64,000 nucleotides of DNA from Novipirellula aureliae (GTDB taxonomy: Bacteria > Planctomycetota > Planctomycetia > Pirellulales > Pirellulaceae): positions 252,374 to 316,373 of the forward strand of contig NZ_SJPY01000002.1 of NCBI RefSeq assembly GCF_007860185.1, written 5' to 3'. The notes under the pieces were generated by a model. The model was not told where the DNA came from. It did no database searches and was given only the letters and a program-made list of their open reading frames with translations. The position numbers and the translations under genes were made by a program. Of this stretch, positions 2,127 through 62,043 are shown one piece after another. The number at the start of each line of letters is the position of its first letter. The first letter of the stretch is position 1.

Positions 2127-3341
2127 TTAGTAAGTTCTTGGTCGAACCGACGCCTGGACGCGGCTTGGTAGGCCTTGGATTCGCAGGAACCCTTCCGCAT
2201 CGTCTTGGTTGTAGGAACCGCCTCCTTCCATCGTGGCAATTTCGGCATCATACAAACTGTTCGGGCTCGTCCGCGATTCGACGCTAATGTTCCCTTTGTA
2301 TAGTTTCAACGTGACTTCGCCCGTTACCGGTTTTTGAGCCTCTTGAATAAACGCCATCAAGGCATCCATCTTGGGCGTATACCAGAATCCGTAGTACACC
2401 ATCTCGGCGACTTCGGGTGCCAAGCGATCACGCAAGTGCATCAAGTCACGGTCCATCGTCAGTTGCTCTACATACATGACGGCATCGTACAGTACCGTCA
2501 TGCCTGGTGACTCATAAACGCCCCGGCTCTTCATACCGACAAAGCGGTTTTCGACCATGTCGATGCGTCCGATACCGTTGCGGCCAGCGATCTCGTTGAG
2601 CGATTCGACCATCTCCAGTGCATTGACCGACTTGCCGTTAAGCTTGACCGGCACGCCAGACTCGATACCGATCGTAACCGATTCGGATTTATCCGGTGCT
2701 TCTTGTGGACTGACGCCCATTCCGAAATCAACGAGTTCAACCCCGTTAACGTCTAGCTCCTCGAGCTGGCCCGCTTCATAGCTGATGTGCAACACATTTT
2801 CGTCGCTACTGTAGGGTTTTGACGTGGATGCTTTAACGGGGATGTTTTTCTCAGCACAGTAGGCGATCAATTCGGTCCGTCCAGGAAATGCGTCACGAAA
2901 TTCCTTGATCCGCCAAGGAGCAATCGTTTCGACGCTCGGGTCGAGGGCTTCGGCGGCGAGTTGGAATCGGCATTGGTCGTTTCCTTTACCCGTTGCTCCG
3001 TGAGCGTAAGCGGTCGCTCCGACTTCACGAGCGACTTCGAGGCAAACCTTGCTGATCAGCGGGCGGGCAATCGAGGTGCCGAGCAGGTAGATTTGCTCGT
3101 ACTTGGCCTGCCAAGCCAAAACGGGGAAAGCAAAGTCGCGGCACAGTTCTTCGCGAACGTCGATGAGACGAGCGGATTTCGCTCCGCAGTCGCGAGCCTT
3201 TTTCATAGTCGCTTCGCGATCTTCGCCCGGTTGCCCGAGATCGACGTAGACCGCATGCACCTCATAACCCTTGTCTTGAAGCCATCCAAGAATGACCGAA
3301 GTATCCAATCCACCCGAATAGGCAAGTACACAGCTTTTCAT
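2127..3341 (-). CDS. argG: argininosuccinate synthase
   Basis: MKSCVLAYSGGLDTSVILGWL (PP-loop), ...GATGKGNDQCRFQL..., full-length ArgG homology. The ORF track extends to 3428, but the ATG at 3339-3341 (MKSCVLAYSGGLDTS) gives a canonical N-terminus. Confidence 0.93.
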   Translation of the reverse strand: MKSCVLAYSGGLDTSVILGWLQDKGYEVHAVYVDLGQPGEDREATMKKARDCGAKSARLIDVREELCRDFAFPVLAWQAKYEQIYLLGTSIARPLISKVCLEVAREVGATAYAHGATGKGNDQCRFQLAAEALDPSVETIAPWRIKEFRDAFPGRTELIAYCAEKNIPVKASTSKPYSSDENVLHISYEAGQLEELDVNGVELVDFGMGVSPQEAPDKSESVTIGIESGVPVKLNGKSVNALEMVESLNEIAGRNGIGRIDMVENRFVGMKSRGVYESPGMTVLYDAVMYVEQLTMDRDLMHLRDRLAPEVAEMVYYGFWYTPKMDALMAFIQEAQKPVTGEVTLKLYKGNISVESRTSPNSLYDAEIATMEGGGSYNQDDAEGFLRIQGLPSRVQASVRPRTY

Positions 3342-3369: not shown

Positions 3370-4290
3370 TTGAAACAAGATTCACTGCCCAATTTGAATT
3401 TCGAAACCCTCTTCGTGCAACCGCCCATGCCCAGTCAGCCACCCGATGCGAGAGAAATAATTGCCCAGGTCGCTACGGGAGCAATATCGATTGACGACGC
3501 CCTAGCACGTCTCGGAATCGCTACCGCAGCATCGACAGGGCTTGAAAATCTGCCCAAGAATCGAGCGGAAATGCAATCGATCGGCGGTGCGACCGTCGAT
3601 TTGGGGCGTCGAGAACGTTGTGGATTCAGCGAAGTAATCTACGGTGAGGGAAAAAACGTATCCCTTATCGCCGATATCATTGAAACGCAGCAGCGGGCTG
3701 GGCAGAGTTCTTTGGCTACTCGGCTTGCCCCATCGGCCGCCGAATGGCTACAACAAAAATTCCCTTCGGGCCACTACAATTCATTGGCCAGAACGTTTCG
3801 CACCACAGCCAAAAATCCTCAGCCCCCCTGCCCTGCTGAGCAAAAATCTTTCTCTGCTACCTATCATGCCGCCGTCGTCACCGCGGGAAGCACCGATACT
3901 CCGGTCGCCGAAGAAGCGATCGAAACCCTCATCTGGATGGAGATTCCCTACCAGCGTTTCGATGACATCGGTGTCGCCGGGCCGCAAAGATTACTTGCGG
4001 CCGTGCCCCAGCTTCGCCAGGCATCGGCGGTCGTGGTGATTGCGGGCATGGAAGGCGCGCTGCCAGCGGCCATCGCAGGCCATTTGTCGGCCCCCATTTT
4101 CGCAGTCCCGACCAGCGTTGGCTACGGCGCAACACTGGGCGGCTTGACTCCACTTCTGGGCATGTTGAGTAGTTGTGCTTCGAATGTCGCCACCGTCAAC
4201 ATCGACGCCGGTTTCAAAGGCGGATATTTAGCAGGAATCGTGGTCCAGCAATTGCTCGCTAGTCATTCGCCATTTGGAAAGATAAAGTAG
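3370..4290 (+). CDS. larB: nickel-pincer cofactor biosynthesis protein LarB (PurE-like pyridinium-3,5-biscarboxylic acid mononucleotide synthase)
   Basis: N-terminal REIIAQVATGAISIDDALARL helix domain followed by a PurE-like fold: VVTAGSTDTPVAEEA ... IAGMEGALPAAIAGHLSAPIFAVPTSVGYGATLGG ... TVNIDAGFKGGYLA. This matches the COG1691/LarB architecture. Confidence 0.65.
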   Translation: MKQDSLPNLNFETLFVQPPMPSQPPDAREIIAQVATGAISIDDALARLGIATAASTGLENLPKNRAEMQSIGGATVDLGRRERCGFSEVIYGEGKNVSLIADIIETQQRAGQSSLATRLAPSAAEWLQQKFPSGHYNSLARTFRTTAKNPQPPCPAEQKSFSATYHAAVVTAGSTDTPVAEEAIETLIWMEIPYQRFDDIGVAGPQRLLAAVPQLRQASAVVVIAGMEGALPAAIAGHLSAPIFAVPTSVGYGATLGGLTPLLGMLSSCASNVATVNIDAGFKGGYLAGIVVQQLLASHSPFGKIK

Positions 4291-11512: not shown

Positions 11513-11930
11513 GTCGAGTCAATCGTTTAACGCTTAGCCGAAGGCGCCAGCTTTCCCATAAGCGGTCGCCTTTGGCTTGGCGTTAAACAATAAGTCGAGT
11601 CAATCGTTTAACGCTTAGCCGAAGGCGCCAGCTTTCCCATAAGCGGTCGCCTTTGGCTTGGCGTTAAACAATAAGTCGAGTCAATCGTTTAACGCTTAGC
11701 CGAAGGCGCCAGCTTTCCCATAAGCGGTCGCCTTTGGCTTGGCGTTAAACAATAAGTCGAGTCAATCGTTTAACGCTTAGCCGAAGGCGCCAGCTTTCCC
11801 ATAAGCGGTCGCCTTTGGCTTGGCGTTAAACAATAAGTCGAGTCAATCGTTTAACGCTTAGCCGAAGGCGCCAGCTTTCCCATAAGCGGTCGCCTTTGGC
11901 TTGGCGTTAAACAATAAGTCGAGTCAAACC
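11513..11930. repeat. 81-bp tandem repeat x5 (plus partial sixth), each unit a long imperfect hairpin
   Basis: Unit gtcgagtcaatcgtttaacgcttagccgaaggcgccagctttcccataagcggtcgcctttggcttggcgttaaacaataa starts at 11513, 11594, 11675, 11756 and 11837. The stem GTTTAACGC...GCGTTAAAC has a secondary arm CCGAAGGCG/CGCCTTTGG. Lies between convergent thrS and glycosyltransferase 3' ends. Confidence 0.9.
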
Positions 11931-18095: not shown

Positions 18096-19262
18096 ATGTT
18101 TTCCATTGAACGAACGGATCATTTGGCGACAATCGTTTCGGGGGCTGATTCGTCACGCGAACTTTGGAATTCGCTCGCCGATGGCGTCCCGTTTCGCGAA
18201 CCGAGTTGGTTGGAATCTTGGTGGGAATCGTTTTCAAATGGACAAGAACCCTACATTCTAATCGCACGCGACGCGTCGCGGCAAATTTGTGGCCTGTTGC
18301 CACTCTATCGAAAATCGGGTTCGCCCCGAGTATTGTGCTCCTTTGGCAATAATAATGTCTGCAGCGACTTCGTGTCCGTCATCGCCAAGCCTGAGAATGC
18401 AAAGGAAATCGCAAAGGCAATGGCAAATTTCCTAATCGATCAAATGAACGATTCGAACGATAGTTGGGATCTGATTGAAATGGATGGAATCAGTGAAAAC
18501 GATGAAGTCATGAAAACCTTTGCCGCAGAACTGGGAAAACGTAGTGCGATCGTTCACGCTCAGTCTCGGATGCACACTTGGCTGTTCGAATGTCAAGCAA
18601 CATGGGACGATTGGCTGCAAAAACTAAGTCGCCGAACTCGCCGAAAACACCATTTATTGGAATCTCGGGTCGAGGATACCGACGGCATGGAACTCGTCGT
18701 TGCATCAAATCACGACGAAGTAACCGCGCTCATCGACGGCTTGATCGATCTACATCAACGCCGCTGGAACGCGGTCGGGGAACCCGGCAGCTATGCGGAT
18801 CCGAAAATGCGAAGCTTTATCCAACAAGTCGCCAAGCATTGGCACGACCGAAACCGACTGCACCTCGTTGCGATTCTGATGGATGGAAAAACGATCGGTA
18901 ATGCGCTAAATTACCGAAGTGACGATGGATGCCTCTACGTCTATAGCACTGGCTATGACATCGAGGCGTCAAAACTCGAGCCAGGCCGAGTTTTGACGAC
19001 CAAGACGTTGAAATATGCTCACGAGCAGAAGATGAAAGGCGTTGAGTTTTTGCGTGGTGACGAAGCCTACAAAAAGATGCTCGGAGCCGTTCCAACGCGA
19101 TTGTTGGAATACCGAATCGTCGCACCTCGACTCTGGGCAAAGCTCAGTCATGCCGCCTGGGCTACCCAGTTCGAGCTAAAACAATGGGTACGTCGGCGCA
19201 CAGGCCGCGAAACCCTCGAGGTCGTCGATATCGCCAGTAGCAGCGTCTCTCCGAGACGCTGA
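18096..19262 (+). CDS. GNAT-fold acyltransferase, FemAB/BioF2-like (Acetyltransf_6) family
   Basis: 388 aa; N-terminal ~150 aa plus a C-terminal acyltransferase-like region (YVYSTGYD...GVEFLRGDEAYKKMLGA) resemble the FemAB/CelD-like GNAT family. The 3' end runs into the 60-bp repeat array. Confidence 0.5.
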   Translation: MFSIERTDHLATIVSGADSSRELWNSLADGVPFREPSWLESWWESFSNGQEPYILIARDASRQICGLLPLYRKSGSPRVLCSFGNNNVCSDFVSVIAKPENAKEIAKAMANFLIDQMNDSNDSWDLIEMDGISENDEVMKTFAAELGKRSAIVHAQSRMHTWLFECQATWDDWLQKLSRRTRRKHHLLESRVEDTDGMELVVASNHDEVTALIDGLIDLHQRRWNAVGEPGSYADPKMRSFIQQVAKHWHDRNRLHLVAILMDGKTIGNALNYRSDDGCLYVYSTGYDIEASKLEPGRVLTTKTLKYAHEQKMKGVEFLRGDEAYKKMLGAVPTRLLEYRIVAPRLWAKLSHAAWATQFELKQWVRRRTGRETLEVVDIASSSVSPRR

Positions 19263-19416
19263 ACACACCAAATCTCGGAGTGAATCGGCAACATACGTAG
19301 CAGCGTCTCTCCGAGACGCTGAACGCACCGAATCTCGAAGTGAATCGGCAACATACGTAGCAGCGTCTCTCCGAGACGCTAAACACACCAAATCTCGGAG
19401 TGAATCGTCAACATCT
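19237..19416. repeat. 60-bp tandem repeat x3 carrying the palindrome AGCGTCTCTCCGAGACGCT
   Basis: Unit gtagcagcgtctctccgagacgctgaacacaccaaatctcggagtgaatcggcaacatac starts at 19237, 19297 and 19357. First copy overlaps the last codons of the upstream CDS. Member of the GTCTC/GAGAC palindrome family also seen at 39712, 59143 and 61593. Confidence 0.9.
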
Positions 19417-37723: not shown

Positions 37724-37900
37724 GGTTTCCAGCCTGGACTCCAATTTTTCCCAGGCTGGAAGCCTAGGCTACGTGAATCGGTTAATGCCTGAACGCCAAT
37801 TTCCCCCAGGCTGGAAGCCTAGGCTACGTGAATCGGTTAATGCCTGGACTCCAATTTTCCCAGGCTGGAAGCCTAGGCTACGTGAATCGGTTATTGCCTG
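37724..37900. repeat. ~54-bp tandem repeat x3 carrying the GCCTGGACTCCAATTTT and CCAGGCTGGAAGCCTAGG motifs
   Basis: ccagcctggactccaatttttcccaggctggaagcctaggctacgtgaatcggttaatgcc repeated three times with variants, in the 223-bp gap between two co-directional HlyD genes. The GCCTGGACTCCAA core recurs at 1594-1624 (reverse), 9043-9060 and 25668-25690. Confidence 0.85.
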
Positions 37901-37912
37901 GACTCTAACGGT

Positions 37913-40147
37913 CTAAAAATACATCTTCAAGTTTGCTCGAATCATTTCGATGGCATCGTAAAACACCACGTTAACCAGTGGCAGATCCTCACATTGGAAC
38001 ATGACCCGAATTGGAGTCCCGTTCACGGAACCACGGTTTTGAAGCGAGCGGCATAGCTCCATCGACTTCTCGGATGATTCGATTTGCAGCACGACTGCTT
38101 TTGCATCGGTTCCGTCCTTGGTGTTGCGGATCACCGGACCGATCGATTGCATCGTCAATGGCAACGGTTGGTCTTTTGCATCGTTCATCGTTGCGACTGC
38201 GGACAGGACGCCTTTTTGGTTTGCATGATGGACGGGATCGATTCGGGACAGTGGCACACGCGCGTCAACGAACCATCGAGTCTCATTGCCAATAACTTCC
38301 AATAAAGCATCTCCGCGATTGACGGGTCGACCTTGTAAACGCTGCTCGATTTGCCACGCATCCACGACACCATCGTTTGTCGCTCGTATGACCAGCGATT
38401 GTTTCACTTCTTCGAGATCGGCTAATTGTTGATCAATGGTTTGCAGCTCTTCCGCCAACAAACTTCGCTCACTTTGCAATTGTTCGCTACGGTCGGTTCG
38501 GTTGGAAGCCGTATCGACGAGAGCGGTCATGAAAGCTGATTGCTTCTGAATCAGAATCGATCGCCGGCCGATCAACGCGGTCATTTGTTGCTCAAGCGTA
38601 GGATCGCTCATCGACAACAGTTTCTGACCGCTTGTAACCGATTCCCCATTTGCGACATGGATCGATTCGATGACGGCCGACCTTGGCGCAAAAACTCGTT
38701 GCACGTCTGCTGGCCGAAGTACCGCCGGTGCAGTCACTCGCATCGGAACGGGGTAGAGTGCTGCAACCGCCACAAGAGCCATGAAGAGGATGCCAACGAC
38801 GGGGTTGAACCACTTCGCACGACGTCGCGAATGGATTTGGTTCGCCAATGCCCCGATCACGCGCCCCATGGGAATCGCTTCGAGCATTCGACGATGCCGA
38901 ATCGCTAACCCCGTGTGCAATGCGATGCGGCAGAGCGGTTCGCTTAGCAAATCGTCGAGCGGTTCCGAACCGCTGCGGACGAATCCTACCAAGCAAACGG
39001 CATCGCATTCTTCTGAACTGGCAACGAAACGAACTTCTAAATCGGAAGATCCTCCCTCTTGTTCGTCCGGAAGCATAATACACGAGGTTGCGGGACAATA
39101 GTACTCGTTGGCGACCGCTTCGATCTGTTTCGCTGCACTGCCGTTCCGGTCGATCGTACCAACATGACTCACCGCAACCAATTTGCAATCGTTTGCTTCG
39201 ACGTAGCACAATGCAACCCGGTCAAGGGGAAAAATCTTGGCGACCGAGTCGACCGCGAGCATTTCGATAGAACGGCTGTTGGTTTGGGCATGAAGCGAAG
39301 CAATGATCGCATCGACTTGGTCGTTTACACGTGCTTTGTGATCGAGACAGCGAAGTTGATCGTTGCGCAAAAACTCGCCAGCTAAATCTGCCATTTGAGC
39401 GACGAAACGCAGGTAGCCACGCTGGGTCGCGATCCCGCAATCGGGTTCAAGAAAGACTTCGAGGACATACGAAGGATGCGGCGAGATCGGATTGGACTCG
39501 ATCGGTACGACCGCCGCAGCCACATGGGTTGGATTGGCTGGAAGAGCGGAATCGGTAGCCCCGGGAGTTGCCGGAACAACGACCGGCTGTCCCGAGGCAA
39601 TCACTTCCGCAATCATTTGCAGGTGAGTGTTTGCCGATTCAGACGGAATCGTTTGGTCTGTCACCTTGCCAATCCGATGAGCAACCGAAAACGTCCATTC
39701 ATCAGTAGATCCGTCTCTCCGAGACGGACAGCCCGGCACCGTGGTTTCGTCTCTCCGAGACGGACAGCCCGGCACCGTAGGTTCGTCTCTCCGAGACGGA
39801 CAGCCCGGCACCGTAGGTTCGTCTCTCCGAGACGGACAGCCCGGCACCGTAGGAGCGTCTCTCCGAGACGGACACTCCCTCGTATCAACATTCCAAATCA
39901 CAACGCCTTCTGCTGCCATAGCCACCAGAATACGGTTGGCTAGCATTCCTAGAAATTGGTGACGCGAGGCATGACTGCGAGCCGCCAGTGCCACTTCGCG
40001 AACAATGTCGGCGATTTCACGCCGCGTTTCTTGGACGAGTGGGTTATTTTCGCCCGTCGACCGCTGCGGATGCGGCGCAGCGTTACCACCTGGAGCAGGT
40101 CCAGAAGGAGAAAAGACGAACGGTTGGTCGTGAACATCCGCTTGCAC
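37913..40147 (-). CDS. HlyD family adaptor protein with large N-terminal cytoplasmic GAF-like region and an in-frame 12-aa x5 repeat
   Basis: 744 aa. N-terminal ~450 aa is soluble with GAF-like blocks, then a TM helix (VVGILFMALVAVAALY), then a HlyD-like periplasmic domain (coiled coil LAEELQTIDQQLADLEEVK; beta-strands). Residues ~90-150 are CPSRRD(A/E)PTVPG x5, encoded by the palindromic 36-bp repeat. Confidence 0.5.
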   Translation of the reverse strand: MQADVHDQPFVFSPSGPAPGGNAAPHPQRSTGENNPLVQETRREIADIVREVALAARSHASRHQFLGMLANRILVAMAAEGVVIWNVDTRECPSRRDAPTVPGCPSRRDEPTVPGCPSRRDEPTVPGCPSRRDETTVPGCPSRRDGSTDEWTFSVAHRIGKVTDQTIPSESANTHLQMIAEVIASGQPVVVPATPGATDSALPANPTHVAAAVVPIESNPISPHPSYVLEVFLEPDCGIATQRGYLRFVAQMADLAGEFLRNDQLRCLDHKARVNDQVDAIIASLHAQTNSRSIEMLAVDSVAKIFPLDRVALCYVEANDCKLVAVSHVGTIDRNGSAAKQIEAVANEYYCPATSCIMLPDEQEGGSSDLEVRFVASSEECDAVCLVGFVRSGSEPLDDLLSEPLCRIALHTGLAIRHRRMLEAIPMGRVIGALANQIHSRRRAKWFNPVVGILFMALVAVAALYPVPMRVTAPAVLRPADVQRVFAPRSAVIESIHVANGESVTSGQKLLSMSDPTLEQQMTALIGRRSILIQKQSAFMTALVDTASNRTDRSEQLQSERSLLAEELQTIDQQLADLEEVKQSLVIRATNDGVVDAWQIEQRLQGRPVNRGDALLEVIGNETRWFVDARVPLSRIDPVHHANQKGVLSAVATMNDAKDQPLPLTMQSIGPVIRNTKDGTDAKAVVLQIESSEKSMELCRSLQNRGSVNGTPIRVMFQCEDLPLVNVVFYDAIEMIRANLKMYF
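39712..39885. repeat. 36-bp tandem repeat x5 (CGTCTCTCCGAGACGGACAGCCCGGCACCGTRGKTT) lying in-frame inside the GAF-HlyD CDS
   Basis: Copies start at 39712, 39748, 39784, 39820 and 39856 (last degenerate). The core CGTCTCTCCGAGACG is the same palindrome as in the intergenic arrays at 19237, 59143 and 61593. Confidence 0.9.
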
Positions 40148-59142: not shown

Positions 59143-59380
59143 TGTAGTAGGCGAGTCTCTCCGAGACTCGTAATGTATCGTAGTAGGCGAGTCTCTCCGA
59201 GACTCGCAATTTCAGCGTCTCAATTTCAGCGTCTCAGTTTCAGCGTCTCAATTTCAGCGTCTCAATTTCAGCGTCTCAATTTCAGCGTCTCGGAGAGACG
59301 CTGCTACTGTTCAGCGTCTCGATTTCAGCGTCTCGGAGAGACGCTGCTACTGTTCAGCGTCTTGGAGGGACGCTGCGACG
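59143..59380. repeat. composite repeat block: 35-bp unit x2 (GTAGTAGGCGAGTCTCTCCGAGACTCG), 14-bp microsatellite (AATTTCAGCGTCTC) x6, and two copies of CAGCGTCTCGGAGAGACGCTGCTACTGTT
   Basis: Read directly. The last element is the reverse complement of the GTAGCAGCGTCTCTCCGAGACGCTG core of the 19237 array. Lies between the PQQ-protein start and the ExbD stop. Confidence 0.9.
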
Positions 59381-61415: not shown

Positions 61416-61592
61416 CGGTTACTCGTGTGGATTAGGTCCGTAAGAATGGTCATGGTGGAGGTAGTGTAGTATCTTTCTACCTAGAATCACCAAAAGCGGG
61501 CATGATTTCCAGCACTATCCTAACCGATTACGAATATTTATGGGGTGAGGGTGCGACAAGATTTCACGCCGTATCGAAAAAAAGGTTTAGCC

Positions 61593-62043
61593 TAGTAGCG
61601 GCGTCTCTCCGAGACGCCGAACACAGGCCAGCCCAGTAGCGGCGCCTCTCCGAGACGCCGAACACAGGTCAGCCCAGTAGCGGCGTCTCGCCGAGACGCC
61701 GAACACAGGTCAGCCCAGTAGCGGCGTCTCGCCGAGACGCCGAACAAAAGGTCAACCCAGTAGCGGCGCCTCTCCGAGACGCCGAACACAGGCCAACCCA
61801 GTAGCGGCGTCTCGCCGAGACGCCGAACAAAAGGCCAACCCAGTAGCGGCGTCTCGCCGAGACGCCGAACACAGGTCAGCCCAGTAGCGGCGTCTCGCCG
61901 AGACGCCGAACAAAAGGTCAGCCCAGTAGCGGCGCCTCGCCGAGACGCCGAACACAGGTCAGCCCAGTAGCGGCGTCTCGCCGAGACGCCGAACACAGGC
62001 CAACCCAGTAGCGGCGTCTCGCCGAGACGCCGAACAAAAGGTG
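61593..62043. repeat. 41/42-bp tandem repeat x~11 (AGTAGCGGCGTCTCGCCGAGACGCCGAACA[C/A]A[G/A]G[T/C]CA[G/A]CCC)
   Basis: Eleven head-to-tail copies with 3-4 variant positions per unit. Each carries the GCGTCTC(G/T)CCGAGACGC palindrome. There are no unique spacers, so this is a minisatellite, not a CRISPR array. Confidence 0.9.

Follow-up and report, generated by a model that had tools for sequence, protein, structure and literature searches.

The palindromic elements of Rickettsia (Rickettsia palindromic elements, RPEs) are the classic in-frame palindromic insertions. They were reportedly described, as RPE-1 and its relatives, by Ogata and co-workers in 2000. Here we describe an insertion of similar behaviour in the planctomycete Novipirellula aureliae Q31b, where a five-unit array of a repetitive extragenic palindrome (REP) lies in frame within the gene Q31b_14510, which encodes a protein predicted to combine GAF-like domains with a HlyD-type membrane-fusion part. 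The stretch of DNA analysed (64,000 nt of NZ_SJPY01000002.1) is called the window below, and all positions follow its numbering. We assign the element to the GTAG-type REPs, in the CGTCTC-TCC-GAGACG family; it very probably entered the codons of a loop in a GAF domain, was amplified locally to five units, and persists as a tolerated passenger. The case is an unusually clean and datable one of selfish palindromic DNA tolerated in coding sequence, the empty site being known to the base and the host gene being under selection.

REPs have been sorted into GTAG and CGTC super-families (Di Nocera, De Gregorio and Rocco 2013, BMC Genomics 14:522, PMC3733652). That survey, which also mentions RPE-1, RPE-4, and RPE-6, found intragenic REPs that encode 7–30 amino acids when single, dimeric, or grouped and 43–82 amino acids when clustered, many of them in uvrA and other repair genes. 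The top GTAG counts were in Opitutus terrae, a verrucomicrobium of the Planctomycetes-Verrucomicrobia-Chlamydiae (PVC) group, and REP families were recorded in Planctomycetes (Rhodopirellula baltica and Planctomyces). The defining features of GTAG-type REPs are a GTAG head, a covarying hairpin, multiple copies, association with genes for REP-associated tyrosine transposases (RAYTs), and occurrence as doublets (Di Nocera et al. 2013; Bertels and Rainey 2011, PMC3116915). In E. coli, GTAG is needed for binding and cleavage by TnpAREP (Messing et al. 2012, PMC3479197).

Like the intragenic REPs of the 2013 survey, the N. aureliae element is a GTAG-headed, RAYT-associated, and normally extragenic palindrome lying in frame in an open reading frame (ORF); it differs in being a regular direct array, with five units at a period of 36 bp, instead of a single copy or an inverted dimer, and it adds to those cases an exact empty-site ortholog and a structural rationale. 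Neither its 15-nt core, CGTCTCTCCGAGACG, nor the encoded peptides appear in the text or supplementary tables of that paper, and the searchable literature holds nothing relevant on the core sequence or on N. aureliae. With the Rickettsia RPEs it shares the behaviour of selfish palindromic DNA that sits in frame in genes and is tolerated by way of surface-exposed segments and open frames. It is not itself an RPE, since sequence, length, and taxon differ: RPEs are longer (about 100–150 bp for RPE-1), are of CGTC-type or unrelated families, are known only from Rickettsia, and occur as single copies. The wider family resembles systems of RAYTs and REPINs (REP doublets forming hairpins) in having inverted doublets in many genomes and REPs that flank RAYT genes, the arrangement by which such systems are defined (Bertels and Rainey 2011; PMC3337134), but described REPIN populations are lineage-specific, whereas the N. 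aureliae REP core is common to three phyla. The coding array itself is not a REPIN, as all five units have the same orientation and form direct repeats only, with no inverted partner. As in the REPs and bacterial interspersed mosaic elements (BIMEs) of E. coli, a 5' GTAG tetranucleotide lies at the base of an imperfect hairpin. The two differ in hairpin sequence and in taxon, and the planctomycete RAYT-like clade scores under the NCBIfam RAYT cut-off. The sequence-only reading of this DNA had called such an insertion uncommon, which is fair, but the phenomenon was documented in 2013, and four other genes with in-frame copies of this REP family are given below. The array is a clean new example of a documented phenomenon, not a new phenomenon, and opens no new question by itself.

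The host gene, its first GAF-like domain, and the array with its units are placed as follows.

37913–40147, minus strand: host gene Q31b_14510, 744 aa, an uninterrupted ORF
39434–40042, minus strand: predicted first GAF-like domain (about aa 36–238), from the topology of an AlphaFold2 (AF2) model and Pfam GAF matches in insert-free homologs
39705–39878, plus strand (orientation of the GTAG head; the host gene is on the opposite strand): inserted REP array, 174 bp (4 x 36 + 30), bounded by alignment with the empty-site ortholog
39705–39740, 39741–39776, 39777–39812, and 39813–39848, plus strand: array units of 36 bp each
39849–39878, plus strand: last array unit, truncated to 30 bp

Each unit consists of the head GT[AG]G, 3 nt, the core CGTCTCTCCGAGACG, and a 14-nt spacer, GACAGCCCGGCACC, which in the final unit reads GACACTCC. 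Tandem Repeats Finder gives a period of 36 bp, 4.7 copies, and 94% matches over 39705–39874. Exact cores stand at 39712, 39748, 39784, 39820, and 39856, and the corresponding heads, each 7 nt before its core, are GTAG, GTGG, GTAG, GTAG, and GTAG. Divergence is greatest in the terminal units, and units 3 and 4 do not differ at all. The peptide read through the array is CPSRRD(A/E/E/E/G)(P/P/P/T/S)TVPG x5, with CPSRRDEPTVPG as its repeat; it occupies residues 90–148 in place of one Ser, a net gain of 58 aa. The window ORF is 100% identical to the deposited protein (P0001) and contains no stop codon over its 2235 bp. The claim of the sequence-only reading that a five-copy in-frame repeat in a 744-aa ORF shares its palindrome with intergenic arrays is thus borne out by Tandem Repeats Finder, by exact core matches, and by the intact ORF. 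The coordinates it gave, 39712–39885, need correction: the insert spans 39705–39878 and comprises four units of 36 bp and one of 30 bp.

Q31b_14510 is predicted to consist of two cytoplasmic GAF-like domains, one transmembrane (TM) helix (about aa 447–463), and, in the periplasm, a part of HlyD/membrane-fusion-protein type. The HlyD_3 model matches at 50.8 bits (cut-off 22.2), and comparison of the full model with the PDB by Foldseek matched MacA, MexA, and ZneB (E about 1e-11), matches that mostly reflect the C-terminal membrane-fusion part and do not bear on the GAF fold. The AF2 model, built on an 81-sequence alignment, has a mean predicted local distance difference test (pLDDT) score of 86.8 and contains two alpha/beta domains with GAF topology. 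A lipoyl/barrel-sandwich fold C-terminal to the TM helix together with an N-terminal GAF fold places the protein among HlyD adaptors with an N-terminal GAF domain.

Assignment of the first domain to GAF rests on Pfam matches in insert-free homologs and on predicted topology. In those homologs the Pfam GAF match covers the insertion site (aa 55–153 of P0091, 56–153 of P0003, and 64–158 of P0002); it reaches 29.3 bits in P0091 against a cut-off of 22.4, and GAF_3 is above its cut-off in P0002. The modelled secondary structure of the domain runs H36–56, H62–77, E81–88, E152–160, H169–185, E189–191, E211–216, and E227–232. Because the insert splits the domain, GAF matches in Q31b_14510 itself are fragmentary and fall under the cut-off; REP arrays in genes can in this way lower domain-model scores. 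Lying N-terminal to the TM helix, the first GAF-like domain is predicted from topology to be cytoplasmic. In the model, the insert is the loop between strands beta1 (aa 81–88) and beta2 (aa 152–160), with pLDDT below 50 at residues 94–145 and above 94 in the flanking strands. The predicted structure thus places the insert in the loop of the beta1-beta2 hairpin, inside the first GAF-like domain, and the inserted residues are predicted to be disordered. It had been read from the sequence as a linker between an N-terminal region and the GAF-like domain; the AF2 model and the Pfam matches in homologs contradict this.

The closest homolog, P0002 (82% identity, 686 aa), comes from a Joint Genome Institute (JGI) metagenome, with its gene at L001:3420–5480. 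Gene order is kept at that locus, with MlaE divergent upstream and, downstream, a second HlyD-type gene, an M50-like gene, and an RF-1-domain gene. A DNA alignment of the two genes has a single gap, of exactly 174 bp, and flanks that are collinear base for base. With a slash marking the point of insertion, the ancestral site reads ..GATACCAG/TGACGAG.., or in codons ..GAT ACC AG/T GAC GAG.. (D-T-S-D-E); the filled site, with the insert bracketed, reads ..ACG AG[G GAG TGT CCG ... GGA TCT AC]T GAT GAA... Compared with the empty site, the first bases of the insert are exactly the GTAG head. No target-site duplication is present at the junctions (empty site ..CCAG/TGAC..), and the ends of the insert, GTAGATC.. 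and ..GACACTCC, are not inverted repeats. Of the earlier description of the element as REP/MITE-like, the first half holds, as the element is REP-like and shares its family with the intergenic arrays; in the strict sense it is no miniature inverted-repeat transposable element (MITE), since it has neither terminal inverted repeats nor a target-site duplication.

Relatives without the insert, which the sequence-only reading had proposed to look for, exist: the ortholog lacks exactly 174 bp, and the array is absent from it and from all 119 other listed homologs. Among 80 homologs the loop has a median length of 6 residues (range 1–25), against 63 in N. aureliae; the next homologs, P0003, P0004, and P0010, have 5-residue loops too, and some Novipirellula species carry unrelated sequences of 18–25 residues at the same position. 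A profile-free HMMER search with the 58-aa insert among 1.84 billion representative proteins found no true homologs, its 41 matches being unrelated proteins with 12-residue periodic repeats (eukaryote-like or of low complexity), and the exact unit CCGAGACGGACAGCCCGGCACC has no match in metagenome contigs. Because the ortholog is without exactly these 174 bp and homolog loops are short, the comparison shows the array to be specific to the N. aureliae lineage and a gain, not a loss; the short loop is ancestral, and the position tolerates insertions. The array is a candidate site of length variation between strains, as the sequence-only reading had suggested; the comparison covered a single genome of the species.

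Purifying selection acts on the host gene both before and after the insert. Between Q31b_14510 and P0002 the ratio of nonsynonymous to synonymous substitution rates (dN/dS; Nei-Gojobori method) is 0.125 overall, with dS about 0.84; by part, it is 0.24 in the 89 codons upstream of the insert and 0.11–0.12 in two downstream parts.

Three intergenic arrays in the window carry the same palindrome.

19237–19414, plus strand: intergenic REP array, 60 bp x 3, GTAGCAGCGTCTCTCCGAGACGCTGAAC..., found by repeat and core search
59143–59362, minus strand: intergenic REP cluster, with 2 variant copies GTAGGCGAGTCTCTCCGAGACTCG (on the plus strand), a 14-bp x 6 run of half-sites, and 2–3 copies GTAGCAGCGTCTCTCCGAGACGCTGAA (on the minus strand)
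61589–62036, plus strand: intergenic REP array, 41–42 bp x 11, GTAGCGGCGTCTC[G/T]CCGAGACGCCGAAC...

With at most one mismatch the core has 28 matches in the window, against 0.03 expected from dinucleotide shuffles. Besides the coding array it is found at 19244, 19304, and 19364, at 59286 and 59329 (minus strand), and, as a T/G variant, in 11 copies at 61602–62029; the copies at 59143–59200 are of the variant GAGTCTCTCCGAGACTC. In every unit, coding or intergenic, GT[AG]G stands exactly 7 nt 5' of the core. The coding sub-type has the stem extension ..C/G.., with GGAC after the core, and the three intergenic arrays have GCGTCTC...GAGACGC; judged from these sequences, the coding copies are relatives of the intergenic arrays and not direct copies of them. 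At the gathering threshold, no Rfam family matches the window anywhere along its length.

Some peculiarities of these intergenic arrays may be recorded here. An ORF at 18096–19262 (plus strand, 388 aa) ends in the first REP of the 60-bp x 3 array; its stop codon (19260–19262) lies just past the palindrome at 19244–19258, so that the REP supplies the last codons and the stop. At 59207–59291, between complete REPs of both orientations, lies a 14-bp x 6 array, TTTCAGCGTCTCAA, of REP half-sites, an unusual degenerate form. A CRISPR-like reading of the array at 61589 (41 bp x 11) was rejected, as its 'spacers' are only about 13 nt long and are themselves repeated.

The element is filed as a GTAG-type REP on the strength of its GTAG head, its covarying hairpin, its presence in multiple copies and in doublets, and, in other genomes, its association with RAYTs. 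An unpaired GTAG or GTRG stands at the 5' foot of coding and intergenic copies alike, and in the window alone there are about 23 copies at four loci, three of them intergenic. The short imperfect palindrome can form a hairpin with a 6-bp core stem, a 3-nt loop, and a 2–3 bp extension, and the stem covaries: in 139 copies from other genomes the 3-nt extension is complementary at 84% of positions, against 37% in shuffles (maximum 44%), with at least eight compensatory types, including GGA/TCC, CAG/CTG, GGG/CCC, CCG/CGG, and GGT/ACC. The extensions of the coding copies are partly degenerate. Inverted doublets of the family occur at 59143–59362 and at many fetched loci, and many copies in other genomes have an inverted partner, giving REPIN-like doublets.

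A scan of one genome per species for the motif GTAGNNNCGTCTCNCCGAGACG gave at least 120 stretches (L003–L122). The matches listed, among which the N. aureliae genome does not figure, include Pirellulaceae, Planctomycetaceae, Phycisphaera, several Verrucomicrobiota, and Chloroflexota (Anaerolineae), as well as single metagenome-assembled genomes (MAGs) of Hymenobacteraceae and Steroidobacteraceae. The same 15-nt core is found in at least three phyla, with extensions CAG/CTG and CCG/CGG in Pirellulaceae, GGA/TCC in Verrucomicrobiota, and GGG/CCC in Anaerolineae. Such breadth is unusual for one REP sequence and suggests either that the core has been inherited vertically from very early on, under constraint on the site that the RAYT recognises, or that it has spread horizontally.

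RAYT-family ORFs directly adjoin the REP at no fewer than eight loci in three phyla, all fetched by the DNA motif alone: L021 and L056 (Verrucomicrobia), L081 (Anaerolineae), L057, L128, L136, and L138 (Pirellulaceae-type), and L123 (Roseimaritima multifibrata). The ORF at L021, with the REP on both sides, scores 96.5 on the NCBIfam model REP_Tyr_transpos (NF047646), whose cut-off is 80; the Pirellulaceae RAYT-like clade scores 46–55 bits on that model, under the cut-off. N. aureliae has a RAYT-like homolog, Q31b_44130 (P0213), that is 53% identical to the L057 protein.

Two further observations concern these transposase genes. At L123 (CP036262), the RAYT-like gene P0149 has 108-bp arrays on both sides, at 2474–3000 (4 copies, upstream) and 3664–4172 (2–3 copies, downstream), which consist of a sister REP doublet, GTAGCAGAGTCTCTCCGAGACTC paired with inverted CGTAGCTCCGCCTCTCCGAGGCGGAGA. 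In a Pirellulaceae MAG, a 363-aa ORF at L040:1241–2329 (minus strand) joins a Y1 transposase domain (IS200-like/RAYT-like) to a helix-turn-helix (HTH) domain of the DnaA C-terminal type; a REP copy lies some 0.9 kb away.

We propose that the insert arose in three steps. A GTAG-type REP would first have entered the codons of the surface loop in the N. aureliae lineage, presumably by a RAYT-mediated event. The unit of REP plus 14-nt spacer would then have been amplified locally, in place, into a direct array of five copies. Direct tandem arrays are typical of this REP family and have periods of 60, 41–43, and 14 bp in the window and of 30, 31, 32, 33, 34, 36, 37, 39, 40, and 50 bp at 24 metagenome loci, at three of which they border a RAYT gene. 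Identical central units with diverged ends are the pattern expected from unequal exchange or slippage. The third step, which we count as established, is retention: 174 bp keep the frame, and the loop, which faces the solvent, varies in length. Five of the six frames of the array are free of stops, the closed frame being the one that reads the TAG of the head, and an insertion whose length is a multiple of three would therefore usually leave an ORF open. The insertion survives because its length is such a multiple, because these five frames are open, and because the loop is variable and faces the solvent. The extra 58 residues would form a disordered excursion that leaves the fold undisturbed.

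Several points weigh against this proposal. The stem extensions of the coding copies are degenerate (ATC/GAC, TTT/GAC, GTT/GAC, and GAG/GAC), which would make them poorer RAYT substrates. Q31b_44130 scores 54.7 bits on the NCBIfam RAYT model against the cut-off of 80 and is only a candidate for the cognate RAYT of this genome. No further copy of the 14-nt spacer GACAGCCCGGCACC came to light in the window, the 145 fetched loci (at two mismatches or fewer, chance matches only), or metagenome contigs. Neutrality of the insert is assumed, and production of the full-length protein is presumed.

The spacer also bears on whether the array was built in place at all. Either one unit or a ready-made array may have been inserted; GACAGCCCGGCACC is seen nowhere else in the DNA searched. 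The array might have been copied as a block from an existing genomic array, through template switching or gene conversion at hairpin-stalled forks. Such a recombinational origin would suit the absence of a visible target-site duplication, the abundance in this genome of tandem arrays with array-specific spacers, and the lack of any relation between the spacer and the ancestral gene at the point of insertion, which implies that the unit was not built from local flanks. Searches of the window, the fetched loci, and metagenomes, however, turned up no donor array that carries this spacer, and the insert starts exactly at the GTAG head, as expected of a REP-defined end. We regard block copying as possible but unlikely, and entry of a REP followed by local amplification as the better account.

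Members of the same REP family lie in frame in four other genes.

L134:4191–10310, minus strand: UvrA-like ORF with an in-frame 33-bp x 2 pair, ASLRDANPRVAASLRDA
L142:7128–11633, minus strand: Ser/Thr kinase-leucine-rich repeat (LRR) ORF with an in-frame 33-bp x 3 array between the kinase and LRR domains, encoding GRLGETAGAVV x 3
L044:3–2546, plus strand: PSCyt1-DUF1549-DUF1553 ORF with an in-frame doublet between DUF1549 and DUF1553
L111:4652–7477, minus strand: TIR-TPR ORF with an in-frame doublet between the TIR and TPR domains

Further candidate sites at L024 (in the N-terminal region of YidC), L035, L049, and L070 were set aside as ambiguous, the REP lying near an ORF end or outside recognised domains. 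The cross-phylum core, the tie to RAYTs, and the in-frame recurrence suggest a system in which REP-driven variation in protein length could be studied. More speculatively, the REP/RAYT family may be a recurrent generator of in-frame tandem peptide inserts in large multidomain proteins (GAF-HlyD, UvrA-like, Ser/Thr kinase, DUF1549/DUF1553, and TIR-TPR) and, being free of stops in five of six frames and prone to tandem amplification, a general source of variation in loop and linker length, with some inserts, including the Cys-rich one described here, perhaps recruited for function. We hold this broader idea to be doubtful; if true, it would make the family a source of protein innovation or of strain-level polymorphism in these phyla.

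Exaptation of the N. aureliae insert itself is improbable. The insert might work as a Cys/Pro/Arg-rich cytoplasmic loop whose five Cys residues serve metal or redox chemistry, as a length-variable, contingency-like signalling tract, or through five mRNA hairpins that tune translation or stability of the operon transcript. The host gene is under purifying selection with its frame kept, but with five of six frames open a stop-free reading needs no selection. The mRNA segment of the array has a predicted fold of -96 kcal/mol (z = -2.7), but the z-score is no more than modest; any array of palindromes would be expected to fold strongly, and the fold is no evidence of function. The presence of the same family in frame in other multidomain signalling and repair proteins could reflect repeated recruitment, and a clustering of REP-bearing proteins in particular functional classes has been noted (Di Nocera et al. 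2013). Against all of this, the insert is unique to one genome, being absent from the ortholog and the 119 other listed homologs; its near-identical units imply a young array that has had no time for visible selection; and its peptide is predicted to be disordered. Most likely, the insert is a tolerated passenger, neutral or slightly deleterious, without a function of its own.

It is highly improbable that the array is an assembly artefact made of mis-assembled repeat reads, or the locus a pseudogene in which two ORFs surround an intergenic array. Short palindromic tandem repeats are hard to assemble, but the flanks are collinear with the ortholog base for base around an insert of exactly 174 bp, and no stop interrupts the 2235 bp. 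The N-terminal 89 residues (PFVFSP..ETRREIAxIVREVA..AAEGVVIW) are moreover conserved, form one GAF domain with the residues that follow the insert, and evolve at a dN/dS of 0.24. For annotation, REP arrays in planctomycetes can sit in real genes and give no ground for splitting ORFs. That CPSRRDEPTVPG is an ancient repeat of the protein family, its likeness to the REP being due to chance, is already refuted by the data: relatives do have a variable loop at this position, but only that, the repeat is absent from all homologs, the HMMER search returned only unrelated proteins with a 12-residue period, and a 15/15-nt core with its GTAG head at the same spacing as in the intergenic REPs stands against 0.03 matches expected. 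Neither of the two outcomes that the sequence-only reading had held to be fatal to it was encountered, the array containing no stop or frameshift and the Cys/Pro repeat being no ancient protein repeat.

Other REP-like arrays lie nearby. Directly past the stop codon of Q31b_14510, at 37732–37905, a different GTAG REP forms a 55-bp x 3.2 tandem array (minus strand, cacGTAGCCTAGGCTTCCAGCCTGGG) with an inverted partner at its end; the orthologous intergenic region, L001:5481–5662, holds a tandem array of unrelated sequence that repeats about every 37 bp. The spacer downstream of the gene turns over by array replacement. Palindromic arrays of other families lie at 1348–1551 (68 bp x 3, GTGG + CTGGGGCTTCCAGCCCCAG with an inverted partner) and at 11513–11927 (81 bp x 5.1, units 100% identical, with the long palindrome GTTTAACGC..GCGTTAAAC), and the N. 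aureliae genome appears to be rich in several families of REP-like arrays.

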